The notes beneath the pieces were generated by a model that was not told where the DNA came from, ran no database searches, and saw only the letters and a list, made by a program, of their open reading frames with translations. From an uncultured Bacteroidia bacterium (GTDB taxonomy: Bacteria > Bacteroidota > Bacteroidia > Bacteroidales > CAJPTX01): a DNA stretch of 64,000 nt. The stretch covers positions 64,697 to 128,696 of the forward strand of contig CAMXWF010000006.1 of NCBI GenBank assembly GCA_947252645.1. The letters run 5' to 3'. Below are positions 13,691-58,411 of this stretch, piece after piece. The position numbers were made by a program, and so were the translations under genes. How positions within the stretch are numbered: the stretch's first letter is position 1; each line of letters begins with the position of its first letter.

Positions 13691-13711
13691 GTGCCACGGC
13701 TACCTCGGCCC

Positions 13712-36174: not shown

Positions 36175-38350
36175 CTAGATCTCCAAACCAACCGCCAGGT
36201 TCCAGCTCAAGGGGGCCCCCAGCTGGCCAAAATAGCGGTAGCCCCGCCGTTTCTTGCCCACCGGGCTGGTGAACATATAGGCAAAGTACCTGGAGTTGAG
36301 CAGATTGTTCCCCCAGGCGCGCAGATAGAGTCCACGGTAGGCCACACGCAGCTCCGCCTGCAGCTCCCCATGGTAGGGCTGCATAAGCGTGTTCTGCTCA
36401 TCGAAATACTGCCGACCATAGGCCTGGTAGGCCACGCTGCCCGATAGGTGCCAACTGCTGCGGGGGCCAAACGTCTGCTGCGCCCCCACGCGCAGCGACC
36501 CCGTGAAGGCCGGCGCCATGACCGTGTACTTACCCACCACCTCCGGCCGGGCGTGGCGCACATAGCGTGCGTTGGTATACCCCGCGCTCACATCCACTGT
36601 AAGCCAGCTCAACGGTTGCCAGCTACAATCCGCCTCCACCGAATAGCTATGCACATCCCCCGCATTGCGGATGGCCGGGCCCATCATCTCTATCAGGAAG
36701 ATCTGCTGATCGCGCCAGTCAATGAAATTCACCGCCAGCGACCCCCGCAGCATGCGCATCAAATCCACCAGACGCACGCCTAGCTCATAGCTCCAAAGAC
36801 TCTCCCGACCATATCCAAGCTGCGGATTATGCTCCATGGGGCGATTGTCCACCGCGTTGAAGCCCCCAGGCTTAAAACCCCGCGCCACCGTGATGTAGGT
36901 CGTCCACCTACCTGCCCACAGGCGAAGCAGGGAAACGCGCGGCAAAAGCGCCACAAAGTGCGCAGGCGCACGCTGCGTACCCCAAGGCCCATGCCCTAGA
37001 ATCGGACTGAAGAGCTCCTGCGCGTAGTCCAGATGGCTATACTCATATTCCAGCCGCACGCTGCCCGTTAGCTGCAGCTGGGTACGCGGTGCGATCCAGC
37101 TCACCTGACCAAAAACCGAGCCTCCTGCCGTCTGGACACTGCTGCGGTAGTGCATGCTGTCAACCATGCTAGCAGCCACACCGAGCAGCAAGGCCTTGTC
37201 GGGGCCAAAGGGCGCATAGAGTCGCATGCCATGGTGCTGATAGCTAAGAAATAGCCCCGCCAGCCAACGCAAAGGGGCCTGAGGCCGAGACTGCGCCAAC
37301 ACCTCCAGCGTCCCCGTGTACTGCCCGATGAACCTACGATGCGAAAACACCGAGAGATTGGTATAGTCCGCATCCATCCGCTGCCTATCATCCCGGTAGG
37401 CCACACTCGCAGTCGCCTCCAGCCCCCAATCGGGAAACTGTCCGCGATAGCTCACATGGCCTCTGGCATGCCAACGCACGTAGTCACACGGCGCATCGTA
37501 GTTCACCCAGTACGGGCACGCCATGAGAGAATCTACCGGCGCGTAGCCATAGCCCGCATCGTCCGTCAGTCCGCCCGACAGACCAAACTCCAGCCGCGCG
37601 CTGTCTGAAAGGCGACAGCGCCCCCGGTAGCGCCCATAGTAGAGACTGCGGGGCGTATTCCAGCGCCCATCGTGGCGGTTGCGGTAGTAGCCCCTAGAGC
37701 GCAACGCCGTCAGCACCACCCTATTGCCCACGCAACCCACCGGGAGATCGCCACCAAGCATGGCACCGAGGGTCCGAAAAGCCCCATAGGAAACCTCTGC
37801 ACGCAGGGCCCGACGACGGCGTGGCGCAGGCGTGTAAACATTCATCTGGCCTATGATGCTGTTGCGACCATAGAGCGCAGTCTGCGGGCCACGCAGCATC
37901 TCCACACGCCATATATCCACCAAGGGCAGCTGGAAGGCATCACGGTCAAAATAGGGCACGCCATCCACGTAGAGCCCCACGGGAGCAGCACCCATCACCG
38001 ACCCCACTCCCCGCACGTAGATCGGGCTGGAAATGCGCAGACCGCTAGGCTGCAAATACACATTGGGCACTAGGCCTGAAAGACTCCGCAAATCTGCACC
38101 TGGCATCTCTCGGCGCACCGGCAGCACCGTGGTAATAGCATGCGGCGCCAAGCGCACATCTTGTTCCCAACGGTCACCCCGCACCATCACAGGTGCTATC
38201 TGCCTCGCGCAGAGAAGGCTATCCGTATCGTCCTGCTCGTTCGACAACGCCAGCCCCCTGGCCTGCAGGGTGGGAAAAATCAAGGCCAAGAACACCAACC
38301 GGCAAATGGCCCGCCCCCTAATCCGCGCTGACCGACAAAAAAAATCCATG
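36175..38350 (-). CDS. TonB-dependent receptor
   Basis: The plug region reads PNVYLQPSGLRISSPIYVRGVG...LRGPQTALYGRNSIIG, followed by a long beta-barrel. The first ATG is at 38350; the longest ORF begins with TTG at 38358. Confidence 0.75.
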
Positions 38351-38425
38351 TGCAGCAACCATCTAGCAATGGGAATCTGCCCCTCTGCGCCAACCCTAGG
38401 CAGAGCAACACACCCACACTCCCCG

Positions 38426-38499
38426 TGATCCAGTCGGGGATCGAACCCGAAACCTACAGCTTAGAAGGCTGTCGCTCTATCCGATTGAGCTACTGGACC
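38426..38499 (-). tRNA. tRNA-Arg (anticodon TCT)
   Basis: The minus strand reads GGTCCAGTAGCTCAATCGGATAGAGCGACAGCCTTCTAAGCTGTAGGTTTCGGGTTCGATCCCCGACTGGATCA. It forms a cloverleaf with the anticodon loop CTTCTAA. CCA is not encoded. Confidence 0.85.
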
Positions 38500-38543
38500 T
38501 CCCACCGCCTTCCCCCGATAGCTTGCGGGAAAGGCAAACACCA

Positions 38544-39953
38544 CTACGCCCGACCAGCACTACCCTTGCGAACCTCCTCGCACACCGCCTCAGGCTCTAT
38601 CGGAATGCGGTGCTCGCCTAGAATCCGGCAGCCCGTGGCGGTGATGACAATATCGTCCTCTAGGCGAATGCCCCCGAATTCGTAGTACTTCTCCAGCTCC
38701 CGAAAATTGATGAAGGCGTTATTGATCTTCTCCTTGTGCCACTTCTCTATGAGCTTGGGGATGAAGTAGATACCAGGCTCCACGGTCACCACAAAGCCCT
38801 CCTGCAGACGCTTACCACAGCGCAGGGAGGCCGTGCCAAACTGCGCGCTACGCTGCACCTCCGTGTCGTAGCCCACGTAGTCCTCCCCGTAGCACTCCAT
38901 GTCGTGCGTATCAAGCCCCATCATATGGCCCAAGCCGTGGGGCAAAAAGAGCGCATGGGCCCCGTTGGCCACCGACTCATCTACGTTACCCTTCATCACC
39001 CCGATGGCCTGTAAGCCCTCCGTGAGCACGCGGCACACAGCCATGTGCACATCCACGTACTTCACGCCAGGCCGCGCCAACTCCACCCCCTTATTCACGC
39101 CCCGAAGCACCGTCTCGTACACCGCCAGCTGCTGCTGGCTAAACGCACCCCCTACGGGCGAAACGCGCGTATTGTCGCTCGCGTAGTGCAGCTGCGACTC
39201 CGCCCCGCAATCTACCAGCAGTAGGCGCCCCTTCTCCAAAATACCATCGTGAGCCTCGTTGTGCAAACGCTCCCCGTGCTGCGAAAGGATGGTGTTGAAG
39301 GAGGTCATGTATCCATACCCTACCGCTATGCCCTCCAGCTCGCCGGTCAAGACCTGCTCCGAGGCCCCAGGCTGCGCCCCGCGCATGGCCGCCACATGCA
39401 TCTTGTAGCCCACCTCATGGATGGCATCCAACTCCGCAATCTCCTCGGCCGACTTCACCGAACGCTGGGCTATAACCGCCTCCACCAGCTGATGCGACAC
39501 GTAGTTGCGCACCCCCTCGGGCGTCAGCCCCAGCAGCTCATGCAGCTGGAGAACCTGCTCGGCACGGTATGGCGGAAGGTAGTGCACCTTGCGCCCATGG
39601 CGCACCGCGCTATCTAGCTCATCCTTCAGCTCGGCCAGCGGGCGCACGCATTGTATGCCCACCTGCTCAGCCCGGGACACCAGCGATGCCTGGTCCCCCA
39701 TCCAGATGATATCATCCATGGTATACTCATCGCCAAAAAGGTAGTCCTTGCCTCCGTCCAAATCCAGCAAACCCACCAAGTTGGCCGCATCGAGTCCAAA
39801 ATAGTAGAGGAAGGAGCTATCCTGACGGAAACGGTACGGATTCCCCTCATAGTTGATGGGGGAGTAACCATTGCCTAGCATCAGCACAAGCCCACCCTTC
39901 ATCCGGCTACGCAGTGCCTGTCGGCGCTCTATATAGACTTTGCTCGCAAACAT
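38544..39953 (-). CDS. Xaa-Pro aminopeptidase (M24B, with an AMP_N domain)
   Basis: The motifs are FRQDSSFLYYFG, D.GAE...YASD.TR, HGLGHMMGLDTHD and VVTVEPGIY...GGIRLEDD. Confidence 0.85.
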   Translation of the reverse strand: MFASKVYIERRQALRSRMKGGLVLMLGNGYSPINYEGNPYRFRQDSSFLYYFGLDAANLVGLLDLDGGKDYLFGDEYTMDDIIWMGDQASLVSRAEQVGIQCVRPLAELKDELDSAVRHGRKVHYLPPYRAEQVLQLHELLGLTPEGVRNYVSHQLVEAVIAQRSVKSAEEIAELDAIHEVGYKMHVAAMRGAQPGASEQVLTGELEGIAVGYGYMTSFNTILSQHGERLHNEAHDGILEKGRLLLVDCGAESQLHYASDNTRVSPVGGAFSQQQLAVYETVLRGVNKGVELARPGVKYVDVHMAVCRVLTEGLQAIGVMKGNVDESVANGAHALFLPHGLGHMMGLDTHDMECYGEDYVGYDTEVQRSAQFGTASLRCGKRLQEGFVVTVEPGIYFIPKLIEKWHKEKINNAFINFRELEKYYEFGGIRLEDDIVITATGCRILGEHRIPIEPEAVCEEVRKGSAGRA

Positions 39954-40027
39954 GTTCTCCTGCTTTGATACGCTAACCGCGGCAAGTTACAACTAATTCA
40001 ACCAACCTGCCCCACCCCGCGCCCTGC

Positions 40028-41212
40028 TCAGCTGACAATATTCAGCGTGGATAGCGCCAGCTGGATCTCCTCGGGGCAGCCTATGTGCTTGCCCGGTACA
40101 TCCGAGAGCTTGACGCAATTGTACCACGGCTGCGAGGAGGTCAGCTGGCAGCGGTAGAGCTTCATGACGATGTTCAGCGGCCTGACCCCGGGGGCCACAT
40201 CGTTGGTCAGGTTGGTGCCTATCCCAAATGTGCTCCCGATGCGCCCACGGCAGTAGTCCTGGATCTTCACCGCCTTCGGAATCGTCAGCGCATCGGAAAA
40301 AACTATGTACTTGAGCATGGGGTCGATCCGCAGCTCCTGGTAGCGCGCAATCACCTTATCCGCAAACGAAAAAGGATCCCCGCTATCCTGGCGCACTGAA
40401 GTGAACAGCGCGGCATGCTTCTTACTCAGGTTCTTCAAAAACACATCCGTGGTATACGTGTCGGCCAACACCGTCCCAAGGTCGCCATCGTAAACCCGAA
40501 TCCAGTCCTCCATCGACATGTAATTGGCCATCTTATAGCCGTAGACCGCCCCGTGGAACTGCACCCACTCATGGGGATGCGTCCCCGCAGGCTTGAGGTG
40601 TTCCCGCAGGGCAAAGTAAAGATTACTCGTCCCAAAAAGACTATGCGGACAGTTCTCCTTGAGTATGCGCGTCACCTCGGCCTCCACGGCCCAGCTAAAC
40701 CGACGCCGAGCCCCAAAAATTGACACCCGCAGCCCATGGTCCTCCATGATCTGCGCCTTCTCCCGCGCAGCGCTCGCTAGGTACTCCGCATCGACACGCT
40801 GCCCCGTAAGACGAAAATAGAGCTCCGACACCGTGGCCAAAATGGGAATCTCCCACAGCGTAACCCGATACAACGGGCCACGGGCCACTATCCCCAGCGA
40901 CCCATCGTGCAGCGAAACCTCCACCTCCCGCGAATCAAACCGATAGCCCCGCAAAAAATCAATGTACGTGGGCGGCAGGTACGGCAACTCTTCGCGCAAA
41001 AAGAGCTCCTCCTCCCGCGTCAAGGCCAGCGATTCCATCATCAGCAACTGCTCCCGTAGCAGCACATCAAACCCCTCGGGAAACTTGATGCCATCCCTAT
41101 CCTGAAAATGAAACTCACCATTGGCCCGCGGGAAAAGCGAAAAATACGCATACCCACACGTGAACTTATACAGATCGGTATCCAGCAAACTCCTAATAAT
41201 CGGCTCTGCCAT
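40028..41212 (-). CDS. pncB: Nicotinate phosphoribosyltransferase
   Basis: The start is set at MAEPIIRSLLDTDLYKFT. A further motif is FGARRR...GTSN. Confidence 0.85.
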   Translation of the reverse strand: MAEPIIRSLLDTDLYKFTCGYAYFSLFPRANGEFHFQDRDGIKFPEGFDVLLREQLLMMESLALTREEELFLREELPYLPPTYIDFLRGYRFDSREVEVSLHDGSLGIVARGPLYRVTLWEIPILATVSELYFRLTGQRVDAEYLASAAREKAQIMEDHGLRVSIFGARRRFSWAVEAEVTRILKENCPHSLFGTSNLYFALREHLKPAGTHPHEWVQFHGAVYGYKMANYMSMEDWIRVYDGDLGTVLADTYTTDVFLKNLSKKHAALFTSVRQDSGDPFSFADKVIARYQELRIDPMLKYIVFSDALTIPKAVKIQDYCRGRIGSTFGIGTNLTNDVAPGVRPLNIVMKLYRCQLTSSQPWYNCVKLSDVPGKHIGCPEEIQLALSTLNIVS

Positions 41213-41252
41213 GGCTATATGCTTTCTCCTGGGGGCCACAGTGCCCCTCCAC

Positions 41253-43376
41253 CTATCCTACCTGTATCAAAGGATCCCGCGTGGCCCTGCGGAATGCTAT
41301 GGCCGCCTTGAGCTTTGCGTGCGCTGGCCGCTCCAGCAGGGGATCGGCCGCCAGCAACTCCTTGACGGTCTGCCGCACCGCCACCAACAGCTCCGCATCC
41401 TCCAGCACACTGGCCACCCGCAAGCCCAGATCGTGCCCACTCTGCGCCACCCCCTCCAGCTGACCAGAACCCCTAAGCCGCAAATCGGCCTCCGCTATCC
41501 GAAAACCATCGTTGGTCGCAACCATAGCGGACAAACGCGCCCGCGTGGCCGGCTTCATCTTCCTACTCGCCACCAGCACGCAGTAGCTCTGCGCCCCGCC
41601 GCGACCCACGCGCCCACGAAGCTGGTGGAGCTGCGAAAGACCAAACCGCTGCGCGCTCTCTATCACCATCACCGTGGCATTCGGCACATCCACCCCAACC
41701 TCTATCACGGTCGTAGCCACCAAGATTTGCGTCCGCTTGGAAGAAAAAGCCAACATCGCCGCCTGCTTCTCCTCCGCGCGCATCCGCCCATGCAGCATGC
41801 CCACCCGGTAGCCCTGGCCCGAAAAATAGTCCTTTATCTGCGCAAAGCCCTCCTCCAGGGAGCGCAAGTCGAGCTCCTCCGACTCCTCTATGAGCGGATA
41901 CACCACGTAGACCTGGCGCCCGCACGCCAGCTGGCCCTGCATGAGCCTATAGACCTCGCCCCGCCTATCCTCATAGGTCAGCAACGTCTGCACCGGCCGA
42001 CGACCTGGGGGCAGCTCATCGATCACGCTCACCTCCAAATCGCCATACACCGTCAAGGCCAGCGTGCGCGGAATCGGCGTGGCCGTCATGATCAGCACAT
42101 GCGGGTACACCGACCCATTCTTCACCCATAGCTTGGCGCGCTGCTCCACGCCAAAGCGGTGCTGCTCATCCACCACCACCAGCCCCAGCTCGTGGAAGCG
42201 AACCGCATCCTCTAGCAACGCATGCGTGCCCACTAGCAGCTGCACTGCCCCAGTCTCCACGCCGACCAGCAGTTCCCGGCGCACGCGCAACGGCGTACTC
42301 CCCGTAAGCAGACCTATCCGCACCGGCAACCCATCCAAGTAGTGCCGCAGCGTGGCCATATGCTGCTCCGCCAGTATCTCCGTGGGCGCCATCAGGCACG
42401 CCTGGTAGCCATTGTCCACCGCCAGCAGCATGCAGAAAAGCGCCACGAGGGTCTTCCCGCTCCCCACGTCGCCCTGAAGCAAACGGTTCATCTGACGGCC
42501 ACTCCCCATATCCGCACGCATCGCCCGCAACACCCGCTTCTGCGCCCCTGTCAGGTCAAACGGCAACTGCTCCTTGTAGAGCCGATTGAAGCACTCCCCT
42601 ACCCTACTAAACACTATCCCCTGATGCTCATGCCGCCGTCCCTCCGCCTGGCTCAGCATATCCGCCTGGAGCACAAACAGCTCATCGAACTTAAGCCGAT
42701 AGCGCGCTGCCAACACCTCCTCCATGCGCCGAGGACTATGGATGTGCTGAAAAGCCCAACCTCGGGGCGGCAACGCGTAGGCACTCTGGATCTCCAACGG
42801 CAAATACTCCTCCAGCAGCGGCGCGTAGTCCGACAATAGGCCCTCCATGAAGCTCGCCACGCTCGCCGACCCCACCTTCTCCTGGCGCATCTGCTGCGTG
42901 GAGGAATAGACCGGCTCTATATGACCCTCAAGCGGCGCCGAGGGGGCGCGGTAATCCATACGGGGCTGCGTGAGCGAGTAGGATCCTTTGTATTCGCTCA
43001 CCTTGCCGTAGGCCACATAGTCGCCACCCACCCGCAGACGTCGATAGATCCACTTGACGCTCTGAAACCACACCAGCCTAAGCTCCTGCCCCTGCGCATC
43101 GCGCAGCAAACCCTCCAAGCGCGCACGACCCCCGCCCTGGACTTTCTGAATGCTCACCAGCTGCCCCGCCACCTGCGCCGACGCCATCTGCCCATTGAGC
43201 TGGTGGACCATGAGAAACTGCGACCTATCCTCGTAGCGCAACGGCAAAAACCACAGCGCATCGTACACCGTGCGCAAACGGAAATCACGCATCAAGGCTA
43301 AGGCCACCTGCGGCATCGCACGCCCCGCAGATGCCAGCGAATCGGCTAACGACTTCATCTCTACAAATGTAGCCAT
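41253..43376 (-). CDS. recG: ATP-dependent DNA helicase RecG
   Basis: It has a wedge domain followed by helicase motifs LLQGDVGSGKT, VVDEQHRFG, MTATPIPRT and QLHQLRGRVGRG. Confidence 0.9.
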   Translation of the reverse strand: MATFVEMKSLADSLASAGRAMPQVALALMRDFRLRTVYDALWFLPLRYEDRSQFLMVHQLNGQMASAQVAGQLVSIQKVQGGGRARLEGLLRDAQGQELRLVWFQSVKWIYRRLRVGGDYVAYGKVSEYKGSYSLTQPRMDYRAPSAPLEGHIEPVYSSTQQMRQEKVGSASVASFMEGLLSDYAPLLEEYLPLEIQSAYALPPRGWAFQHIHSPRRMEEVLAARYRLKFDELFVLQADMLSQAEGRRHEHQGIVFSRVGECFNRLYKEQLPFDLTGAQKRVLRAMRADMGSGRQMNRLLQGDVGSGKTLVALFCMLLAVDNGYQACLMAPTEILAEQHMATLRHYLDGLPVRIGLLTGSTPLRVRRELLVGVETGAVQLLVGTHALLEDAVRFHELGLVVVDEQHRFGVEQRAKLWVKNGSVYPHVLIMTATPIPRTLALTVYGDLEVSVIDELPPGRRPVQTLLTYEDRRGEVYRLMQGQLACGRQVYVVYPLIEESEELDLRSLEEGFAQIKDYFSGQGYRVGMLHGRMRAEEKQAAMLAFSSKRTQILVATTVIEVGVDVPNATVMVIESAQRFGLSQLHQLRGRVGRGGAQSYCVLVASRKMKPATRARLSAMVATNDGFRIAEADLRLRGSGQLEGVAQSGHDLGLRVASVLEDAELLVAVRQTVKELLAADPLLERPAHAKLKAAIAFRRATRDPLIQVG

Positions 43377-43496
43377 TAACCGCTAGAATCCCAGAGTAGC
43401 TGCATCCTTAGGCTAAGCTACCAAGAATATCCCAGACCCTGCGCTGCTACCAAGCCGCCACCAGCCCACCGGCACCTAGCTGCACGGCATCCTATT

Positions 43497-45836
43497 CTAG
43501 AAATAGAAGCGTACCCCGCCCATGGGCATTATGGCATTCTCGTACACCGCGCGAGGCTTGCCGAACGCCTCATCGTAGAATACCTCGCGCACGTTCCTAC
43601 GGTTCGTTACGTTCGTCACCTCGACGTACGACTCCAAGGCCCCCCACGAAAAGTTCTGCTTCATCGTTACGTTCAAATCCAAGCGAAAGTAGAATGGCGT
43701 GCGCCCCTCGTATGCGCGTTCATACGAAATATCGAGCCGTCCGGTCGAATGCTTGTACGATGGGGTGTAACGCTTTCCCCCAAGGCACACGCAACGCGCA
43801 TTCACGCCTAGCAGCAGGCTCCGCAGCAGGCGCCATTCGTACCCTCCTACTGCCGTTACCCCAAAATCGCCAGCATATTTCCCCGGCCGCCACGCCCCAT
43901 CATGCCCACTGTAGTCGGCACGATACCACGTGCCAGTAAATGTAAAGTAATACCCCTTCCGAAACGGCCGCTCGAGGGTTAGCTCCACGCCGTAGTTCCT
44001 ACCACGCCCGCCATTGACAAAGCGCCGCCCCCAATCATCGTAGTAGGAATCGCCCATGTTCAAAAACGACTCCTGCGGCACGCTCACGGGCACCGGCACG
44101 CGGTAATGGCCTATGTAGTATATCTCTACCTTGGCCACCACCGACTCCACAAGGCGCTGCCCCGCTGAAAGCACCGCCTGCCAACTGCGCGCCGCGCCTA
44201 ACTCCCTATTCGGCATGTCGAGGCCTTCTCGATAGAAATACAGCTGCCTCGGCAAAAGCTGCGAATGCATCCCAGCGGCTATCCCTATAGAACTCCCCTG
44301 CGCGGCCCAACGCAACATCGCCCGTGGCTCCACTGCGTAGTCCCCATTGAGCGCGTAGCACTGCCCGTATACACCCAACCGCAGCGCCAAGGACTGCGCA
44401 AAATGATAATGCCACTGCGCAAATGCGCGCACCACCCCCGAATACATGGCCTCGGCTGGCATTCGAATCCTGCTATGCTCCCCTTTCCCCAACGCAGTGC
44501 CGTAGAGCGTCCCGCCAATCCCGCAACGCAGCGTGCTACGACTCGTGGGTAGCCAACTCAGCTCTGCGCGGCCATCGTACCGATCCTCCCGCTCGTAGCC
44601 TCGGTATACCAAGAATCCTGTATCTCTAGGATACCCAACCATTGTAACCTCCACATTGCGCGCAAAAAGCTGGTAGGAGAGCCTACCCTCAATGCGTACG
44701 CCCTCGGCCATCGCATACGTACTGCAAATACCAGTAAAAAACTGCCTGTTGCGGTTGTCTACCCACTGATTAAAAACCTGGGTCCCCGCCTGGTAGTCCG
44801 CTTCTCCTTGTTGCTCCTGCGCAGTTTCTATCCTACTGCGCCCCCAAAGGGCAAGCCACTCGAACGTGGCTCGCTTGTAGGGTAGGGTAATCTTGGCCAT
44901 GACGTCGTGGTAGCGCGGCACTCCATGCATATTGCGCACTACCCCGATGGCCTTCATCAACTCGAGGATAGAGTAGCGAGCACTGGCAATATACGTGGCT
45001 ACCCCTCGCCTTCCCAATGGCCCCTGCGCGCTCGCCTCTACGCCATTAAAACCCATGCCCGCAGTGAACTCATGGTGCGCTGCATTGCCCCGATGCAACT
45101 GCATATCGAATAGCCCCGAGGTCACATTGCCATACTCGGCAGGAAATGCCCCGGTGAAAAACGTGGAAGTGGCTAAAAAAGTGCTGTTGAGCATCGACAC
45201 CACCCCGCCCGTGCCGCCCAGCGAGCCGTAATGGTTCGGGTTGCTCAGCTCAAAACCATCCACCTGCCACTGCACGCCCAACGGACTATTGCCCCGTACC
45301 ACGATATCATTGCGCATATCGCCTACGCTTACCACACCAGCCGTATTGGTCACCATCCGCGCCGCATCGCCCCACGACCCTGCATAGCGGTTAACCTCTT
45401 CACTGCTCAGAGCCCGCGCGCTCACGCGCCCCCCCACGCCCCCACGGGCCAACACCGACACCTCGGCTATCGACACCTCCTCAGCATACAGCCCCACCAT
45501 GAGATACGCATCGCGCCCCGCAAGCAGCACCACCGAGCTCGCCTCCCAGGGCACATAATCCAGGCAAGTCACGCGTACCTCGGCGCGACCCATGGGCAAC
45601 CCCTCCAGCTCAAATCCGCCTGTCGTATCGCTATACGCCTTACGCAGCGAATCTCCCAATCGCACCTCCACGCTTGCCAACGAAAGCCCGCGGCGCGTCA
45701 TCACATCGTACACTAGACCGCGCAACGTCTGCCCATACCCCCCACTCGCCCATAGCTGGCCTATCACGACAATTAGAATCGCACACCGCCCCCAAGATAG
45801 CATCCCACAAAGTGTATATAAACGCTGCCACCGCAC
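43497..45836 (-). CDS. TonB-dependent receptor with an N-terminal carboxypeptidase-regulatory-like domain
   Basis: The start codon is GTG. The N-terminal domain reads LRGLVYDVMTRRGLSLASVEV. A plug and barrel follow, and the product ends GGVRFYF. Confidence 0.8.
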   Translation of the reverse strand: MRWQRLYTLCGMLSWGRCAILIVVIGQLWASGGYGQTLRGLVYDVMTRRGLSLASVEVRLGDSLRKAYSDTTGGFELEGLPMGRAEVRVTCLDYVPWEASSVVLLAGRDAYLMVGLYAEEVSIAEVSVLARGGVGGRVSARALSSEEVNRYAGSWGDAARMVTNTAGVVSVGDMRNDIVVRGNSPLGVQWQVDGFELSNPNHYGSLGGTGGVVSMLNSTFLATSTFFTGAFPAEYGNVTSGLFDMQLHRGNAAHHEFTAGMGFNGVEASAQGPLGRRGVATYIASARYSILELMKAIGVVRNMHGVPRYHDVMAKITLPYKRATFEWLALWGRSRIETAQEQQGEADYQAGTQVFNQWVDNRNRQFFTGICSTYAMAEGVRIEGRLSYQLFARNVEVTMVGYPRDTGFLVYRGYEREDRYDGRAELSWLPTSRSTLRCGIGGTLYGTALGKGEHSRIRMPAEAMYSGVVRAFAQWHYHFAQSLALRLGVYGQCYALNGDYAVEPRAMLRWAAQGSSIGIAAGMHSQLLPRQLYFYREGLDMPNRELGAARSWQAVLSAGQRLVESVVAKVEIYYIGHYRVPVPVSVPQESFLNMGDSYYDDWGRRFVNGGRGRNYGVELTLERPFRKGYYFTFTGTWYRADYSGHDGAWRPGKYAGDFGVTAVGGYEWRLLRSLLLGVNARCVCLGGKRYTPSYKHSTGRLDISYERAYEGRTPFYFRLDLNVTMKQNFSWGALESYVEVTNVTNRRNVREVFYDEAFGKPRAVYENAIMPMGGVRFYF

Positions 45837-45880
45837 TGCAAATCAAAGCAAACTTCGCAACTCTTGCAAGCTAGACAATA

Positions 45881-46006
45881 GCCTAACGGCAGCTACCTGT
45901 AGGAATTATACAGTGGAAATTATACAGTTAGCAGTATACTGCCTAATTCTAATCCTAGCTACTTACGGCTAACAACATGATAATAAATACTGACAACTGC
46001 CCACTG
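45881..46006 (+). repeat. Direct repeat copy 1 (126 bp): upstream region plus the first 10 codons of the alkylation-repair-like gene
   Basis: This segment aligns base-for-base, at a constant offset of 341 bp, with 46222-46347. Scattered substitutions are present. The repeat includes the ATG (45977 versus 46318). Confidence 0.85.
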
Positions 46007-46075
46007 AAAACAGACAACTGCCCACTGAAAACAGACAACTGCCCACTGAAAACAGACAACTGCCCACTGTTTTGA
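45977..46075 (+). CDS. Candidate 32-codon mini-ORF MIINTDNCPL(KTDNCPL)3F
   Basis: My own translation starts from the duplicated ATG and stops at TGA 46073-46075. It is too short for the ORF track. It inherits the same upstream sequence as the real gene at 46318. Expression is unproven. Confidence 0.3.
   Translation: MIINTDNCPLKTDNCPLKTDNCPLKTDNCPLF
45992..46069 (+). repeat. 21-bp tandem repeat, 3.7 copies (gacaactgcccactgaaaaca)
   Basis: Unit starts fall at 45992, 46013, 46034 and 46055. The copies are perfect. The minus-strand ORF track mirrors this as QWAVVCF x3. Confidence 0.9.
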
Positions 46076-46221
46076 CAGCACTGCCGCCAAAACAGCTGGA
46101 GGGCGTTGCAAGGTTTGCAGAACGAGCGGCAATTGCGTAAATTGCCAGTGGGCAGTAGACGGCAGGCAGTTGCTAGTGGGTTTCATACTGGTAGCTGGTA
46201 GCTGTTAACTGGCTTCAGCCT

Positions 46222-46347
46222 GCCTAACGGCAGCTACCTGTAGGCAGTATACAGTGGACAGTATACAGTTAGCAGTATACATCTTAATTCTAATTCTAGC
46301 TACTTACGTCTAACAACATGATACTAAATACTGACAACTGCCCACTG
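46222..46347 (+). repeat. Direct repeat copy 2 (126 bp), the copy attached to the intact gene
   Basis: See the entry for 45881-46006. Confidence 0.85.
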
Positions 46348-47055
46348 GCAACTACCCAGCGCGTGGCCTACGAAATCGCCCGCATGGCCAACCCTTCCTA
46401 CGCCCGTTTCCTCCACAAAGTCCTCCCCGGGCAAGAGGACCTCAAGATCCACGGCGTGAAAATCCCCCAACTGCGCGCCCTAGCTCGCCGCCTTGCCCAA
46501 GCCCAGCAGCGGCAGTGCTTTCTCGATGCCCTACCACACCCCAGCCTGGAAGAAAACCTGCTCCACGGACTCCTCATCAACGGCCTCCCAGACGGCCAGG
46601 CCACGCTCACAGAAATACAGCGATTTCTCCCCCACGTGAGCAACTGGATGGTCTGCGACACCACCTCCCCACAAGCCTTCCGCCAACACCCCGAAATCCT
46701 CCAGGGCATACTCCCCCACTGGCTAGCCCCAAGCGCGCAGCCCTACACCCAACGCTTCGCCTGCCTCTGCCTAATGCGCTACTTCCTAGGCCCCCTTTTC
46801 CAAACCGAGCACCTGCAGTGGGTGACTGCGCTCCCCACCTCGCACCGCTACGTACGCACGGGGGCCGCCTGGTACCTGGCCGAAGCCCTCATCGCGCAGC
46901 CTCGCCACGCATGGCCCTGCCTACTAAGCCCAGCAACCCCTACCCCACTGCGCCTCACCGCGCTACAAAAGGCCGTAGAAAGCAACCGCTCCTCCGCTGA
47001 CGACAAATCCTGCTTCCGAAAGCTCATCAAAGAAATCAGGCACGGCAACAGCTAG
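46318..47055 (+). CDS. DNA alkylation repair protein (AlkD-like HEAT-repeat family)
   Basis: The 245-aa product contains ARFLHKVLPGQEDLKIHGVKIPQLRALARRL and WMVCDT, which fit the PF08713-type pattern as I recall it. Confidence 0.75.
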   Translation: MILNTDNCPLATTQRVAYEIARMANPSYARFLHKVLPGQEDLKIHGVKIPQLRALARRLAQAQQRQCFLDALPHPSLEENLLHGLLINGLPDGQATLTEIQRFLPHVSNWMVCDTTSPQAFRQHPEILQGILPHWLAPSAQPYTQRFACLCLMRYFLGPLFQTEHLQWVTALPTSHRYVRTGAAWYLAEALIAQPRHAWPCLLSPATPTPLRLTALQKAVESNRSSADDKSCFRKLIKEIRHGNS

Positions 47056-47099
47056 CCCCAGCCCAAAACTCCTGCACCAAGCTCCTCGATGCCCCCAGG

Positions 47100-48236
47100 C
47101 TACCGCAGGCCTGGCCCCAGCAAACGGCTCAGGCGGAAGGCAAAGTCGGTCAGCAAGATCTTCTGATGCCCGTTGCGATAGAGGTGCTCCAGCAGATTCG
47201 AGCACTCGTAGAGCAGACGCCCCACGTTGCGCCCGTTGGTGTAGGGGCAGAAGTTGTTGAGAAACTGCGCCTCTTCGGGCCGGCAATAGCCCAGCTCAGG
47301 CAGACCAATATTCATCATAAATGCAGCCCGCAGCAGCTGCGCGTAATAGCGTACAGTAGCCTTGAGCTGCTCGCGGTCTAAGGCTGCCGCCTCATCCACC
47401 CACCCCAGCAGGCGCTCCACATCGGTACTATAGGCCGCTCGCATCAGCTCCTGAAACGCCGACAACACCTCAGGCGAAAACGACTGATTGACCAACGCTT
47501 GAGCCCTGGAAAAATCGCCCCCCGCCCAATGCGCCACCTGGTCAGCCTGCTGCTCCTCACAACCCAAGCGCCCCACCAGCGCCTCCCGCATGGCGGGCAG
47601 CGCAATGGGCGGCACCGTCACGCGCTGCAGGCGCGAATAGACCGTAGGCAAAATAAGCTCCTCGTGCTCCGTCACTAGCAAAAACACCGTGCCGCGTGAG
47701 GGCTCCTCCAGCACTTTGAGCAGCTTATTGGCCGCCACCACGTGCATGCGCTCGGGAAGCCAGAGAACCATGAATTTGAAGGGGAGCATACGGCTCTTGT
47801 AAAAAAGCGTCTCGATGATGCGCCCGCTGGTAGCCGCAGAAATTATTCCCTGCTTGCCCGTAGCCCCCAAGGCCGAATACCACTCCTGCTCCGTGAAGTA
47901 GGGATTCTCCACCATGAGCGACCTGAGTACCTGGAGCTGCTCAACGTAAACGTCCATGGGATCCACCCCCGACCGCACCCCAGCCTCCGGGAGGCAGAGA
48001 TGGAGGTCGGGATGCGTAAACGCCTGCATGGCTCGGCAACACGGGCACTCCCCGCAGGAGTCCCCATCACGGCGCTGCTCGCAACCCAAATACTGCGCGT
48101 AGGCCAGCGCCAGCAGGAATGCCCCACCGCCCGGATGCCCCACCAAGAGCTGCGCATGCGGCAAGCGCTGCTCCGCGTGCTGGCGCACGAAAAACGCCTT
48201 GACCTCCTCCTGACCTATAATATCGGCAAAACGCAC
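47100..48236 (-). CDS. holB: DNA polymerase III subunit delta-prime
   Basis: The motifs are IIGQEEVKAFF...RLPHAQLLVGHPGGGAFLLALAYAQYL, a Cys cluster CGECPCC and LKVLEEP. Confidence 0.8.
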   Translation of the reverse strand: MRFADIIGQEEVKAFFVRQHAEQRLPHAQLLVGHPGGGAFLLALAYAQYLGCEQRRDGDSCGECPCCRAMQAFTHPDLHLCLPEAGVRSGVDPMDVYVEQLQVLRSLMVENPYFTEQEWYSALGATGKQGIISAATSGRIIETLFYKSRMLPFKFMVLWLPERMHVVAANKLLKVLEEPSRGTVFLLVTEHEELILPTVYSRLQRVTVPPIALPAMREALVGRLGCEEQQADQVAHWAGGDFSRAQALVNQSFSPEVLSAFQELMRAAYSTDVERLLGWVDEAAALDREQLKATVRYYAQLLRAAFMMNIGLPELGYCRPEEAQFLNNFCPYTNGRNVGRLLYECSNLLEHLYRNGHQKILLTDFAFRLSRLLGPGLR

Positions 48237-48245
48237 AGTAACCCG

Positions 48246-49496
48246 CTAGCGTGAAAGGTGCATATAGGGCTCAATATTCCGAAGCGTCCGCTCGGTTGCA
48301 CCCTTGTTCGACTGCACGAACTCCCGGGCCGCTGCAGCCATACGTTCCTGGCGCTCCGCATCGTCCATCAGGGTCCTAAGCGCAGGCGCCAGCTCCGCGG
48401 GCTTGAGAACAGCCTGCCCTCCCCCGCAAGCCAATAGACCCAGCGCCTCATGGTAATCGCGATACCGCGGGCCAAACACCACAGGCAGCCCATACACCGC
48501 CGGCTCCAACGTATTGTGAATACCCGCACCAAAGCCACCACCCACGTAGGCCAAGCTCGCGTAGGCATAGATGGAAAAAAGTTGCCCAACGCTATCCACT
48601 ATGAGCACATCCACATCCTGGAGCTCCGCGGGCGAGCGCACCTCACTAGCCATCACAGCCGAGCAGGTGAGCCCGCGGCGAAGCGCCGCAAGCCTAGCCT
48701 GACCAAGCTCATGGGGCACCACCACGGCCCGCCAGCCCGAGGGAAGATCGTTGAGCAGCGGCAATAGCCCCTGCTCGTCAGATGGCCACGTACTACCAAA
48801 AACAACCACCTTATGCCCTTGGGCCAAGGACGACACCAACGGGTAGGGCTGGTTCTTCTCCCGGGCCGCTAGCACTCTGTCAAAACGACAATCTCCCGAC
48901 ACAAAGCATCGACTTACACCAAAATCGAGCAGCAGCTGCCGCGACTCCTCATCCTGCACAAAAAGCAGCGAAAAATAGTGCAACACCCGCTTGTAGAAGC
49001 CCCCATACCACTGAAAAAACGACTGCTGCCGACGAAAATAGGCCGATATGAGAAACGTTGGCACCTGACGCCGGGCCAGCTCCATGAGAAAATGCGGCCA
49101 GAACTCATACTTCACAAAGCAAACTATCTCCGGGCGCGCTATGGACAGAAAGTCCCGAACATTCCGCTTCGTATCCAAGGGAAGGTAGCCCACGTAGGTG
49201 GCCAGGGGATCATCGCGACGCACATTGTAGCCCGACGGGGAGTAAAAGGTCACCAGGAGGCGCCAATCGGGGTGCGCAGCCATAAACGCCTCCATGACCG
49301 ACCTCCCCTGCTCATACTCCCCCAAGGAGGCGCAGTGAAACCACACCACCGACCCCTGCCCGGCCGAAAACGCCCGACGCATACGATCCCGCCAACCCCT
49401 CCGCCCGCACAGCAGCGCCCGCGCCTTCGGATGCCACAGCGTCGCCAAATAGACCAAGCAATTGTAGACGTACAACCCCAACGTATAAAACAGCAT
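48246..49496 (-). CDS. waaA: 3-deoxy-D-manno-octulosonic acid (Kdo) transferase
   Basis: The 416-aa product contains VWFHCASLGEYEQGRSV and GGSF...GHN.LEPA-like (VGGGFGAGIHNTLEPA). Confidence 0.85.
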   Translation of the reverse strand: MLFYTLGLYVYNCLVYLATLWHPKARALLCGRRGWRDRMRRAFSAGQGSVVWFHCASLGEYEQGRSVMEAFMAAHPDWRLLVTFYSPSGYNVRRDDPLATYVGYLPLDTKRNVRDFLSIARPEIVCFVKYEFWPHFLMELARRQVPTFLISAYFRRQQSFFQWYGGFYKRVLHYFSLLFVQDEESRQLLLDFGVSRCFVSGDCRFDRVLAAREKNQPYPLVSSLAQGHKVVVFGSTWPSDEQGLLPLLNDLPSGWRAVVVPHELGQARLAALRRGLTCSAVMASEVRSPAELQDVDVLIVDSVGQLFSIYAYASLAYVGGGFGAGIHNTLEPAVYGLPVVFGPRYRDYHEALGLLACGGGQAVLKPAELAPALRTLMDDAERQERMAAAAREFVQSNKGATERTLRNIEPYMHLSR

Positions 49497-50702
49497 AGCT
49501 CACCTCCCACACGACCCCTCGGCCCCCAATGCCTCCTCCAAACCCCACAAAGTTAGAGAATAGTTACCTCTCCGCTACGCCGACCCCACTGACCCCTACG
49601 CCGCGGGAGGGCACCAAAGGAATTCAAGCGCAGCCCAGCGCCCAAACGTAGAATCGGATGCGCCAAGAGGGAGGCCCCGTATGGTCCTGCGCCCGAAAGT
49701 CAAACATCCCCTCCTGGCCATGCCCGTAGGCGTGCGGCAGCTCAGACTCGCCCAGGCGATCGATCAAAGAGAGCAGCACACCCACCACCGCCCCACAGAG
49801 ATGGCCCTCCCACGAAATAGCCGGATCCACTGCCAGCATGCCCCAAAGCAAGCTACCGTAGAGAAACACCACCAGCAGCGATATGGCCACCAGCACCCTA
49901 TCGCGATGCAGCAACCCCGAGAAAAACATGTAAAACGCCAGCGCATACACCAAGCCACTGGCCCCCACATGGTAGCTCGGCCGCGCAAAGCACCACACCC
50001 CCAGCCCCGTCAAGAGCCAGCCCAGCAAGTACACCCTATACCCCCTACGCGGATAGAAGAGGAAAAGCAACGTGCCTAGCACCAGCAAGGACAAGCTGTT
50101 GGTCAGGGCATGCTCCACATTCGGATGGAGCAACGGCATGAACAAAATGCCCAGCAGCCCTCGAAACGTCCGCGGGTAGACACCCAGCCAATAGAATTTA
50201 TCGCCCAGAAAAACGCCCACCAGCCACACACACCAGCCAAATCAGCCACACGTGGGCAGCCGGGAGGAGTAGATTGACCCGCCACCGCCGTAAGTCCTCC
50301 CACGCCTGCCGCGCCGAGGGCACTCCCTGCAAACTAGGCCTCTGGCGCATCGGCTGGTTGCACGTAGCGGATCTCCTGCACCTTCAGCTGCGGATTGTGG
50401 ATCTCCACGATGTCCTCCGAGATGTTGACCAGGCTATCCCCCACCCGCTCACACTGCGAGAGAATATCCACCTCCACCCTATCGCTGATCTCCTCATACT
50501 TCTCCACCCGCGCATAGATGCGGTGAAGCTCCTTCTCGTTCTGGGCATCCATCATGCTCCTGACGAAGTTGAACATGCGGTAGGTGCGCCGGGCATAGAC
50601 CAAGACCTCCTTCTTGGCCTGCAGCAGGGAGAGCTCGCCAGTCTGCAGTAGACCAATGCCTATGGAGTGCAGACGCTCATCCTCATCACCCTTCTCCCGC
50701 AC
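49411..50702 (-). repeat. Segmental duplication, copy A (1292 bp)
   Basis: This segment is colinear with 50703-52423. The offset is 1292 at the left end, 1331 across the rhomboid start and transporter stop, and 1721 at the right end. The indels sum exactly: +390 +54 -15. Confidence 0.9.
49624..50229 (-). CDS. Rhomboid-family intramembrane serine protease (copy A, catalytic residues intact)
   Basis: The start codon is GTG, with a stop 4 codons upstream in frame. The motifs are HPNVEHALTNS, the catalytic HVGASGLVYAL and the catalytic His in EGHLCGAVVG. Confidence 0.75.
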   Translation of the reverse strand: MWLVGVFLGDKFYWLGVYPRTFRGLLGILFMPLLHPNVEHALTNSLSLLVLGTLLFLFYPRRGYRVYLLGWLLTGLGVWCFARPSYHVGASGLVYALAFYMFFSGLLHRDRVLVAISLLVVFLYGSLLWGMLAVDPAISWEGHLCGAVVGVLLSLIDRLGESELPHAYGHGQEGMFDFRAQDHTGPPSWRIRFYVWALGCA

Positions 50703-50788
50703 AGCAGCGCCCGCGCCTTCGGATGCCACAGCGTCGCCAAATAGACCAAGCAATTGTAGACGCACAACCCCAACGTATAAAACAGCAT
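50334..50788 (-). pseudogene. Chimeric remnant: waaA codons 1-28 (50788-50703) fused out of frame to a deleted 3' part of the Na/Pi-cotransporter gene (50702-50334)
   Basis: Segment 50703-50788 is nearly identical to 49411-49496. Segment 50334-50702 matches 51665-51801 plus 52192-52423. In the waaA frame a TAG follows 15 codons after the junction. Confidence 0.8.
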
Positions 50789-51005
50789 AGCTCACCTCCC
50801 ACACGCCCCCTCGGCCTCCAATGCCTCCTTCAAACCCCACAAAGTTAGAGAATAGTTACCTCTCCGCTACGCCGCCCCCAGTGGCCCCTACGCCGCGGGA
50901 GGGCACCAAAGGAAGTCAAGCGCAGCCCAGCACCCCAATGTAGAATCGGATGCGCCAAGAGGAAGGCCCCGTATGGTCCTGCGCCCGAAAGGCAAACATC
51001 CCCTC

Positions 51006-51560
51006 CTAACCATGCCCGTAGGCGTGCGGCGGCTCGGACTCGCCCAGGCGATCGATCGAGGAGAGCAGCACACCCACCACCGCCCCACAGAGATGGCCCT
51101 CCCACGAAATCAGCATGTCCCAGACCAAGCTACCGTAGAGAAACACCACCAGCAGCGATTTGGCCACCAGCAGCGATATGGCCACCAGCAGCGATATGGC
51201 CACCAGCAGCGATATGGCCGCCAGCACCCCATCGCGATGCAGCAACCCCGAGAAAAACATGTGGAACTCCAGCGCATACACCAAGCCTCCGGCCCCCACA
51301 TGGTAGCCCGGCTGCGCGAAGCACCACACCCCCAACCCCGTCAAGAGCCAGCCCAGCAAGTACACCCTATACCCCCTACGCGGATAGAAGAGGAAAAGCA
51401 ACGTGCCTAGCACCAGCAAGGACAAGCTGTTGGTCAGGGCATGCTCCACATTCGGATGGAGCAACGGCATGAACAAAATGCCCAGCAGCCCTCGAAACGT
51501 CCGCGGGTAGACACCCAGCCAATAGAATTTATCGCCCAGAAAAACGCCCACCAGCCACAC
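51006..51560 (-). CDS. Rhomboid paralog (copy B), predicted catalytically inactive or decaying
   Basis: The first 82 aa are identical to copy A. After that it differs in four ways: GASG becomes GAGG, 18 aa are inserted (AISLLV x3), 5 aa (AVDPA) are deleted, and CAG becomes TAG, which truncates the tail. Confidence 0.55.
   Translation of the reverse strand: MWLVGVFLGDKFYWLGVYPRTFRGLLGILFMPLLHPNVEHALTNSLSLLVLGTLLFLFYPRRGYRVYLLGWLLTGLGVWCFAQPGYHVGAGGLVYALEFHMFFSGLLHRDGVLAAISLLVAISLLVAISLLVAKSLLVVFLYGSLVWDMLISWEGHLCGAVVGVLLSSIDRLGESEPPHAYGHG
51146..51217 (-). repeat. 18-bp tandem repeat x4 (ccaccagcagcgatatgg) inside rhomboid copy B
   Basis: The units are 51146-51163, 51164-51181, 51182-51199 and 51200-51217. 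Copy A has a single unit. Confidence 0.9.
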
Positions 51561-51664
51561 ACACCAGCCAAATCAGCCACACGTGGGCAGCCGGGAGGAG
51601 TAGATTGACCCGCCACCGCCGTAAGTCCTCCCACGCCTGCCGCGCCGAGGGCACTCCCTGCAAA

Positions 51665-53413
51665 CTAGGCCTCTGGCGCATCGGCTGGTTGCACGTAGCG
51701 GATCTCCTGCACCTTCAGCTGCGGATTGTGGATCTCCACGATGTCCTCCGAGATATTGATTAGGCTATCCCCCACCCGCTCACACTGCGAGAGAATATCC
51801 AGGTAAAACAACCCAGCCTGGCAACTGTAGCGCCCCTGCTCCATGTTGTCGACATGCGCAGACTTCATGTCGTTGCGATACCGGTTGATGGCATCCTCAC
51901 AGGCATAGGCCTCCGCCAGATCCACCCGCTCATCAGCGCCCCCCAGATTGCGCAGCATAGCCGCAAAGGCATCGTCTACGTAGGTAAACATCTGCTGTAT
52001 ACGGCTCACGATGTACTCGTTGAACCACACCCCATCGCGGTGCTTATTCATAAACAGCCGGGCGATGTTGTGGCAGTAATCGGCCACGTTCTCTATATCA
52101 TCTATCTCCTTGAGTAGGCCCCGCATCGTCGCGCTACCCTCCTCGCTCAACTCCGACGAGTGGATATTACCCAAATACGTGGATATCTCCACCTCCACCC
52201 TATCGCTGATCTCCTCATACTTCTCCACCCGCGCATAGATGCGGTGAAGCTCCTTCTCGTTCTGGGCATCCATCATGCTCCTGACGAAGTTGAACATGCG
52301 GTAGGTGCGCCGGGCATAGACCAAGACCTCCTTCTTGGCCTGCAGCAGGGAGAGCTCGCCAGTCTGCAGTAGGCCAATGCCTATGGAGCGCAGACGCTCA
52401 TCCTCATCGCCCTTCTCCCGCACGGGCAGCAACCGCGTCACAAGCTTCACCATCTGGGGCGTAAACCACACCTGCACCAGCGTGTTTGACACGTTGAAAC
52501 ACGTATGGAACAGCGAGAGCGCAAAGGGCGTGGCCCCCACAGGGTCGGCCTGCAGATCGAAGCCAGCCACCCCCACCAGCCAGGACACCCCCGCCAGGAA
52601 CGGCCTGAAAAGTATGAGTACCCAGCAAACGCCAAAAACATTGAACAGCATATGGAACAGCGCAGCCCGCTTGGCAGCCACATTGCCCACCGAGGCCGCC
52701 AGAATGGCCGTTATCGTCGTGCCGATGTTCTCCCCCAAAATCATGGCCGCCGCCATGGGAAAGTCGATCCAGCCGTTCGAACACATGATGAGCGTCAGGG
52801 CCACCGTGGCCGATGAAGACTGCACTATGAAGGTCATCAGCGTACCCACACCCAAGAAAATAAGCACCGAGAAAAAACCATAGGAGGTGAAGCCCCGAAG
52901 CGCCTCGAGTATCTGGGGATACTCCTGCAAATCGGGCATATTGGCCTTGAGGTACGCCAGGCCCAGGAAGATGAGCGAGAAGCCCAAGATGAGCTCGCCG
53001 CGCGAACGGCGCTTGGGGCGCTTGCTGAAGAGCAACGGTACCACTACGCCGATCATGGGCAAGGTGATGAGGGCTATATCCATCTTGAAGCCAAACAGGG
53101 CGATAATCCACGCCGTGGCCGTCGTGCCGATGTTGGCCCCCATAATCACCCCCACCGCCTGGACCAGGGTGAGCAAGCCCGCGTTGACGAAGCTCACCAC
53201 CATGACCGTGGTGGCCGAGGACGACTGGATCACCGCCGTGACGGCCAAACCCGTCAAAATGCGCTTGAACCGATTGCTCGTCATCGCGGCCAGCAAATCC
53301 CGCATCTTGTCGCCTGCCACCTTCTGGAGCGACTCGCTCATGAGCTTCATCCCGTAGAGAAAAACCCCCAGCGAGCCTACCAGCGTCAACACCTCAAGCA
53401 GTACCTCGAGCAT
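51665..53413 (-). CDS. Na+/phosphate cotransporter family protein with a C-terminal PhoU-like repeat domain
   Basis: The 582-aa product has an N-terminal half with duplicated GANIGTT / GENIGTT motifs. The C-terminal half has two PhoU-like helical repeats. Confidence 0.85.
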   Translation of the reverse strand: MLEVLLEVLTLVGSLGVFLYGMKLMSESLQKVAGDKMRDLLAAMTSNRFKRILTGLAVTAVIQSSSATTVMVVSFVNAGLLTLVQAVGVIMGANIGTTATAWIIALFGFKMDIALITLPMIGVVVPLLFSKRPKRRSRGELILGFSLIFLGLAYLKANMPDLQEYPQILEALRGFTSYGFFSVLIFLGVGTLMTFIVQSSSATVALTLIMCSNGWIDFPMAAAMILGENIGTTITAILAASVGNVAAKRAALFHMLFNVFGVCWVLILFRPFLAGVSWLVGVAGFDLQADPVGATPFALSLFHTCFNVSNTLVQVWFTPQMVKLVTRLLPVREKGDEDERLRSIGIGLLQTGELSLLQAKKEVLVYARRTYRMFNFVRSMMDAQNEKELHRIYARVEKYEEISDRVEVEISTYLGNIHSSELSEEGSATMRGLLKEIDDIENVADYCHNIARLFMNKHRDGVWFNEYIVSRIQQMFTYVDDAFAAMLRNLGGADERVDLAEAYACEDAINRYRNDMKSAHVDNMEQGRYSCQAGLFYLDILSQCERVGDSLINISEDIVEIHNPQLKVQEIRYVQPADAPEA

Positions 53414-58356: not shown

Positions 58357-58411
58357 CAACTCCATACCAACTCCGCACCAGCTCCGTACCCGCTCCGCAC
58401 CAACTCCGCTC
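58357..58411. repeat. 11-bp phased repeat x5 (CCRYAC/CCGCTC hexamers at 58362, 58373, 58384, 58395, 58406)
   Basis: The units read caactccatac caactccgcac cagctccgtac ccgctccgcac caactccgctc. The array ends in the 14-mer accaactccgctca, which is also found at 19746-19759. Confidence 0.8.

Follow-up and report, generated by a model that had tools for sequence, protein, structure and literature searches.

Heptameric simple sequence repeats (SSRs) are over-represented in bacteria and vary between relatives (PMC4692102), and in Haemophilus influenzae an (ATCTTTC)n repeat of this kind lies between promoters P2 and P1 of hmw1A and hmw2A, the hmw1A SSR being transcribed and forming a long hairpin, with expression inverse to repeat number (PMC8262952, PMC12721329). 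The present analysis concerns a 474-bp block of 7-nt units (45881 to 46354) in a 64,000-nt stretch of DNA from an uncultured Bacteroidia bacterium (contig CAMXWF010000006.1; hereafter the window, with positions counted from its first letter), where it is situated between the start of a TonB-dependent-receptor-like gene (45803, minus strand) and the body of an AlkD-like gene (plus strand). The original prediction, made from the letters alone, had described this locus as a duplicated promoter plus leader, in which the upstream sequence and first 10 codons of the alkD-like gene occur twice and the upstream copy opens a small open reading frame (mini-ORF) with a Cys/Pro heptad. The explanation that we favour, and regard as probable though well short of certain, is that the block constitutes a heptanucleotide minisatellite on the margin of a strain-specific insertion, that it provides a surrogate start for alkD, and that a higher-order repeat within it incidentally makes a second, expanding pseudo-start ORF.

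The type of element is already known, and it is its position and consequence here that are unusual. Its 7-nt periodicity, its intergenic location and its variation in length and sequence between close relatives place the block among heptanucleotide SSRs or minisatellites. Like the cyanobacterial STRR (short tandemly repeated repetitive), the Xanthomonas GGGAATC and the Nostoc GGGGA(C/T)T heptamers, it consists of tandem, heterogeneous, intergenic 7-nt units, often in inverted pairs, whose length varies between close relatives (Rehm et al. 2015, PMC4692102). It differs from them in that its CAGTnnn and ACTGnnn units are organized in higher-order repeats of 14, 21 and 341 bp, in that it lies between two gene starts, whereas the described repeats are nearer the upstream (5') neighbouring ORF (PMC4692102), and in that it supplies a gene's start codon and first 13 codons. 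The main block, which separates two gene starts, does not stand right after a gene's stop codon. Minor echoes of a stop-then-array order are seen at 46129, where a TAA is followed after 5 nt by CAGTGGG, and at 43449-43478, where degenerate heptamers follow the stop of the receptor-like gene. In the block's unique spacer, a small perfect hairpin (46121-46139, GGCAATT-GCGTA-AATTGCC) carries a TAA in its loop and directly precedes a CAGTGGG CAGTAGA array, an echo of the 'stop then CAGT array' of the metagenome loci described below. CAGT is reportedly part of the cyanobacterial heptamers STRR1 and STRR3 too (Mazel et al. 1990).

The periodicity extends over 480 bp (45881-46360), with autocorrelation z scores of about 10 at lags of 7, 14 and 21 and of 5 to 7 at lags of 28, 35 and 42; no second region with such lag-7/21 periodicity was found in the 64 kb, and the five phased CAGT/ACTG arrays of the window, against 0.025 expected, all fall within the block. 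Each of its modules, read in sevens, passes from CAGTnnn arrays on the left (GGCAGTA TACAGTG GACAGTA ...) through an AT-rich spacer of about 45 nt containing an ATG to ACTGnnn arrays on the right (AATACTG ACAACTG CCCACTG ...). Overlap with the alkD-like gene is limited to codons 1-13, and codons 5-13 correspond to four heptamers.

Both BLAST and a repeat search of the window confirmed the duplication. Copy 1 (45881-46006, plus strand, with an ATG at 45977) and copy 2 (46222-46347, plus strand, with the alkD-like start codon at 46318) are identical at 116 of 126 positions (92%; offset 341; BLAST E ~7e-47), start codon and first 10 codons included, and the repeat search extends the match to 131 nt at 91%. 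As predicted, the downstream copy runs into an AlkD-like ORF of 245 aa (46318-47055; PF08713). Of the 10 differences between copies, four come from one AAT-to-CAG change that affects the two 14-bp sub-units of a copy alike: copy 2 holds a 14-bp (2 x 7) tandem array of CAGTATACAGTnnn (46245-46281, plus strand), and copy 1 has AATTATACAGT in both sub-units. The occurrence of AATTATAC versus CAGTATAC in both sub-units of each copy points to concerted evolution within each array. A further tandem array, of the 7-bp unit CTGGTAG, is located at 46188-46212 (plus strand) and has one extra unit in one of the contigs compared, L004.

The perfect 21-bp tandem array in the upstream copy was likewise recovered (3.7 copies at 45992-46069 with 100% matches; Tandem Repeats Finder). 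Its unit is composed of three heptamers, ACTGCCC ACTGAAA ACAGACA, and four units make up this variable number tandem repeat (VNTR) in the window (45986-46069, plus strand). Counting the slightly diverged first unit, the array contains four cores of the 14-mer ACAACTGCCCACTG, which elsewhere has one occurrence at 46334 and an inverted one, with two mismatches, at 46146, against a chance expectation of 0.7 occurrences. Read from the ATG at 45977, the array gives the predicted mini-ORF, MIINTDNCPL followed by three KTDNCPL heptads, F and a stop (45977-46075, plus strand; 32 codons; translation MIINTDNCPLKTDNCPLKTDNCPLKTDNCPLF). Three heptamers being 21 nt and hence seven codons, the KTDNCPL heptad follows from the DNA repeat. 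Heptamer arrays of the ACTGCCC type are stop-free in all frames and each module carries an ATG, so that the upstream module automatically opens an ORF. The same holds for (ACTGCCC)n itself, three units of which are seven codons when read in frame (ACT GCC CAC TGC CCA CTG CCC, or TAHCPLP), and the Cys-Pro-Leu motif is the translation shadow of TGCCCACTG, with a diverged three-heptamer unit in the window. When metagenomes were scanned for two ACTGCCCACTG cores 21 nt apart, at least 120 stretches were found against far less than 1 expected (22 specified bases); the matches listed were all (CAGTGGG)n/(ACTGCCC)n heptamer arrays, on contigs of 35-74% GC. Since a 7-nt DNA repeat can cast its shadow as a peptide heptad, caution is called for in small-ORF annotation. 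On the other strand, a 75-codon ORF with QWAVVCF repeats also runs through the array (45959-46186, minus strand), without support as a gene.

The block forms the right-hand part of a strain-specific segment of 2906 bp (43449-46354), in place of which the majority haplotype has 350 bp (contig L016, 5673-6022). BLAST comparison of L016 with the window showed an identity of 99.8% in the left flank (37777-43448) and of 98.5% in the right flank (46355-53095), and none of the sequence enclosed by them was homologous. From the end of the block to the segment's right boundary (46354) there are no more than a few bases. Fifteen nt inside the left boundary, right after the receptor gene's stop, lies the heptamer-like GCCCACCGGCACCTA (43464-43478, plus strand), which agrees in direct orientation at 13/15 positions with the 15 nt that close the segment (46340-46354, GCCCACTGGCAACTA); its score is 20, compared to a maximum of 19 in 500 shuffles, and heptamer-like sequence is therefore present at both ends of the insertion. 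The remainder of the segment is largely taken up by a gene for a 768-aa CarboxypepD_reg / TonB-dependent-receptor-like outer-membrane protein (43497-45803, minus strand; PF13620 and a weak Plug match), the homologues of which are annotated as TonB-dependent receptors in Bacteroidota. It is confined to the insertion haplotype, being absent from L016-L025.

The adjacent AlkD-like protein matches PF08713 (DNA_alkylation) over residues 20-190 at 44.4 bits (cut-off 21) and, weakly, the AlkD crystal structures (phmmer, E = 0.003), while NCBIfam gave no match for it or for the receptor-like gene. Codons 1-13 (46318-46356) derive from block sequence, and from 46355 on the gene equals the majority allele. 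The latter encodes a protein of 240 aa (P0003) that starts MQAQRQLPQRVA (MQAQRQLPQ), versus MILNTDNCPLATTQRVA in the window, the two being identical from residue 14 onward (90% protein cluster). P0003 was present on at least 24 of the contigs read versus 10 for the window's allele, and both haplotypes were found in samples of the same studies. On P0003 contigs, recG lies directly upstream of alkD, without receptor-like gene and without repeat block; the order in the window is recG, receptor-like gene, AlkD-like gene, holB, kdtA. The nearest named relatives of RecG are Bacteroidales metagenome-assembled genomes (MAGs), at about 51% identity.

In L016, the alkD-like gene stands behind ccTAccTTTGccccATG, whose -7 box is canonical for Bacteroidota (TAccTTTG-N4-ATG). 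These 17 nt are also found in front of a 67%-identical orthologue (L009/L010; protein start MLLPDNLAL), whose BLAST homology begins 20 nt upstream of the ATG with L016 and only at 46355 with the window. This shared element, together with the limits of homology, indicates that the P0003-type 5' end is ancestral; in the window, the native alkD-like promoter and the 8 initial codons have given way to the 2.9-kb segment. Thus, in the evolution of this gene's 5' end an insertion removed the native promoter and start, and repeat sequence gave an in-frame substitute. Divergence between the two repeat copies (8%) is far above that between strains, so the duplication is older than the spread of the haplotype, and it probably arrived with the segment. 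No donor of the segment was found: the nearest homologues of the receptor gene (60% and 52%; L027, L028) have neither a similar repeat block nor an adjacent alkD, the sole match to plasmids is a stretch of 122 nt at 71% in a Hymenobacter TonB receptor gene, which is not meaningful, and comparison with phages gave no meaningful match. Similarly, when the AlkD-like protein and a two-sequence alignment were searched against the genome contigs of a species-representative collection no close relative was obtained, only proteins 25-37% identical in unrelated MAGs, and the homologue search yielded a single non-identical AlkD-like relative, the 67% orthologue, on contigs that show at most 225 bp upstream. 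We also considered that the N-terminus MILNTDNCPLA might be the 5' end of a diverged donor's alkD; its similarity to MLLPDNLAL is too weak to settle the matter.

Upstream of the 67% orthologue (L009 1-209, L010 1-224), tandem heptamers of its own are found (AGAGTTG x2, GTACTCT x2, then ACTCTGn units), along with GC-rich GGCGCTAGCGC-type repeats; they are inserted between the conserved -7 box and a 14-nt motif common with L016. The alkD upstream region seems repeat-prone in this lineage.

Comparison across related strains showed both that the duplication is absent from the majority haplotype and that the number of 21-bp units varies among its carriers (4 vs 2). Contig L001 (MEGAHIT k141) matches the window without a single mismatch in the 6.4 kb of flanks that were compared (recG flank, receptor gene, rest of alkD, holB), the sole difference being a 42-bp gap corresponding to two 21-bp units: L001 has two, while L002 has four as in the window. 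Identical flanks with four versus two units make the 21-bp array a hypermutable VNTR. Two units are likewise seen in Logan contigs (k = 31). In L004, the block shows 1.9% substitutions versus about 0.3% in flanking genes, in addition to the extra CTGGTAG. An 18-bp in-frame VNTR and a 1.3-kb duplication, other polymorphic repeats of the window, are in line with the favoured explanation. As a practical consequence, the 21-bp array could be used as a strain-typing marker for this uncultured Bacteroidales-like lineage.

The promoter signals tell against the meaning first given to the duplication. Exact TAnnTTTG occurs 27 times in the window, and in 14 cases an ATG that begins an ORF of 80 codons or more follows within 60 nt, as in recG (TACATTTG-N5-ATG); a one-mismatch scan of the whole window was not enriched over shuffles, and we used exact matches plus a local scan instead. 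TAnnTTTG is missing from both repeat copies, also when one mismatch is allowed. The sole plus-strand near-match in the intergenic region, AAGGTTTG at 46110, is in the unique part between the copies. On the minus strand, near-matches are present at 45839-45856, and the -7-box-like TACACTTTG (45808-45816), outside the repeat, ends 4 nt before the ATG of the receptor-like gene. Minus-strand sites of sigma-70 type (TTGTTA-N18-TAGAAT) in each copy were given little weight, the phylum's promoter consensus being different. The array tract precedes the alkD ATG by 250-325 bp and the receptor ATG by 190-270 bp. The claim that the duplicated sequence is the alkD-like gene's own promoter plus leader is not supported: in most conspecific strains the identical protein, with an MQAQRQLPQ N-terminus, is found behind a different, canonical promoter without the block, and neither copy has a -7 box. 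What stands is that upstream sequence and first 10 codons are duplicated and that the upstream copy opens a 32-codon ORF.

In the sequence of events that we envisage, the 2.9-kb segment, with its receptor-like gene and the block as its right-hand end, entered an uncultured Bacteroidales-like species, in which a minority of the strains carry it. There it displaced the native alkD-like promoter and first 8 codons, and the ORF now starts at the surrogate ATG supplied by the block. The 126-bp duplication would be a higher-order repeat inside the heptanucleotide minisatellite of about 474 bp. The 21-bp, the 7-bp CTGGTAG and the 14-bp CAGTATAC arrays grow and shrink far faster than point mutation proceeds, presumably by replication slippage or unequal recombination. 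The mini-ORF is most likely not a functional gene. If so, an apparent 'duplicated promoter plus leader ORF' can come entirely from DNA-repeat dynamics.

Several observations weigh against this explanation. An inverted repeat core, TTGCCAGTGGGCAGT (46142-46156), is perfectly complementary to 46337-46351 and, at 11/11 positions, to the core of each 21-bp unit; this perfect 15-nt inverted repeat ties 46142-46156 to alkD codons 7-11 and could reflect function. The same applies to the folding of 45977-46380, which is better than that of shuffles on the plus (z = -3.7) and minus (z = -4.3) strands. A non-canonical promoter may lie inside the repeat. The substitute start keeps alkD in frame, and this could be due to selection, an in-frame ATG in a stop-free stretch being, for its part, not improbable. 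As the 21-bp unit keeps reading frame and helical phase alike, copy changes cannot separate coding from non-coding roles. Finally, as k = 31 Logan contigs may collapse the array, firm copy numbers come from the window, L002 and L001 only.

Among the alternatives, a contingency (phase or rheostat) element, in which the number of 21-bp or 7-bp units would tune the divergent receptor gene, alkD or both through promoter spacing or a transcribed repeat hairpin, is unlikely, though the main rival, and would most naturally serve the co-inserted receptor gene. Unit number differs between otherwise identical strains, and the block came together with a surface-receptor gene. Surface receptors are a typical phase-variable gene class. 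The locus resembles hmw in having a 7-nt-based repeat of polymorphic copy number upstream of a gene, between two copies of one upstream module as in the P2-SSR-P1 order (PMC8262952), and in a repeat that, by prediction, can pair with a complementary segment further downstream to give a long hairpin of which it is one arm. In the predicted folds the repeat unit pairs with the inverted core 46146-46156 (z = -2.9 to -3.7), which resembles the hmw 5' untranslated region hairpin cut by RNase III (PMC12721329). Unlike hmw, however, the locus has 2 vs 4 units of a 21-bp higher-order unit and belongs to another phylum with another promoter grammar. Moreover, no promoter was identified in the block, just two copy-number states were seen, and L004 has two uncompensated substitutions in the inverted-repeat arms, leaving 13/15. 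The reading of each 139-nt module as its own hairpin was dropped, single modules folding alone no better than shuffles (z ~-1.1). These arm changes, the z score of single modules and the one orientation in all covering assemblies argue against a conserved structure or recombinase site. Phase variation in Bacteroidales relies mainly on invertible promoters, the SSR-based mode not being usual in this order, and this too speaks against a contingency element. A more specific version, which by analogy would make the block an SSR contingency switch mobile with its gene, where slippage and an hmw1A-like repeat/anti-repeat hairpin would set receptor expression with alkD affected as a side effect, appears decidedly doubtful; if true, a rheostat set by repeat number would exist in an order for which invertible promoters are otherwise the main mechanism known.

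It is improbable that the mini-ORF is truly translated, as a regulatory upstream ORF (uORF; leader or decoy) for alkD or as a small Cys-containing repeat peptide. In its favour, its ATG context is the same as that of the alkD-like start (AACAACATGATA) with A-rich sequence upstream, and its frame is intact in all strains seen carrying the block; a short ORF upstream of a gene with the same start context is also what attenuation-type leaders have. Unlike leader peptides, it shows no conservation beyond one haplotype, being absent upstream of the identical protein of the majority haplotype and of the 67% orthologue, and no terminator/antiterminator pair, the plus strand of 45700-46450 containing no terminator-like site. 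Its peptide is dictated by stop-free, unstable DNA heptamers: length varies with the array (32 vs 18 aa), and the last codon changes from F to S in L004. Neither the mini-ORF nor the 75-codon antisense ORF was ever called by gene callers on any contig or has a Pfam domain, a collection of 15 billion proteins contains none of the exact sequences of the mini-ORF and the antisense ORFs of 75 and 61 aa, and an Rfam search of 45600-46500 at E <= 1 returned no match. There are no peptide-maturation genes, of the kind that serve ribosomally synthesized and post-translationally modified peptides (RiPPs), beside it, the neighbours being recG, the receptor-like gene, holB and kdtA, and as a haplotype-specific ORF it lacks the conservation of a RiPP precursor. 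Of the options that the original prediction had left side by side (leader or decoy, small Cys-rich peptide, by-product of a DNA-level repeat), the evidence favours the by-product.

An inverton, in which the 180 bp between the 15-nt inverted repeats 46142-46156 and 46337-46351 (46157-46336) would switch the alkD start codon, is very improbable. Invertons are common in Bacteroidales, and a perfect 15-nt inverted repeat that brackets 180 bp at a gene's 5' end, within the 100-500 bp of such elements, has a chance expectation far below 1. By manual reading, the flipped state (junction GCGTAAATTGCCAGTGGGCAGTTGTCAG) would lose the alkD start and place a TAG stop in frame, leaving no start upstream of Met23, the next in-frame ATG. 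Unlike invertons, however, the 180 bp contain no promoter motif (no TAnnTTTG with 0-1 mismatch on either strand), all assemblies of the haplotype covering the segment are collinear in one orientation, no alternative N-terminus occurs among members of the 90% cluster, and in L004 both arms have changed; the inverted copy is better explained as a further heptamer array in opposite orientation.

An assembly artefact, a possibility raised with the original prediction, is hardly credible as the source of the duplication or of the difference in copy number. Although k = 31 assemblies (Logan L003, L004, L007, L026) can collapse perfect 21-bp tandem repeats that exceed k in length, the duplication is present in every independent covering contig across different assemblers (both copies in six, L001-L004, L007 and L026, the shorter L006 and L008 showing copy 2 only), and the four units of the window and L002 contrast with two in a MEGAHIT contig whose k of 141 exceeds the array length.

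Arrays of the (CAGTGGG)n type are widespread in environmental contigs (L029-L148; for example L089 1451-1716, L065 3335-3533 and L055 3534-3736). Among the paired arrays listed, the order is almost always CAGT-array, 10-100-nt spacer, ACTG-array (28 vs 2). In gene-sense orientation, 57/132 start within 40 nt (mostly 1-10) of a stop codon, versus 49/600 random positions, counting stops of open frames of at least 100 codons; this stop is often TAG and looks like part of a CAGTAGG unit. The presence of such arrays right after stop codons in many metagenomes may deserve separate study.

Other repeats were noted elsewhere in the window. A second local direct duplication (49397-50715 vs 50689-52437; 92-98% identical) comprises two paralogues of the rhomboid family, repeats the kdtA promoter region (TAACTTTG at 49555 and 50847), and is polymorphic, being absent from L018 and L026. 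One of the paralogues (51006-51560) contains in a membrane segment an 18-bp in-frame VNTR (51146-51226; AISLLV x4.5), and its ORF measures 142, 166, 172, 178 or 184 aa across strains, mostly in 6-aa steps. Cumulative GC skew reaches its minimum near 58.5 kb, the skew being strongly negative (-0.1 to -0.3) across 30-58 kb, whichever way the genes point, and positive thereafter; an 11-bp tandem array (x4.8; 58357-58409) sits at this turning point, and the ORFs flanking it (56777-58111 and 58753-62085) gave no DnaA family match. A 23-bp array (x3.7) occupies 63447-63531, and a perfect 30-bp palindrome (13662-13691) lies between two minus-strand ORFs.

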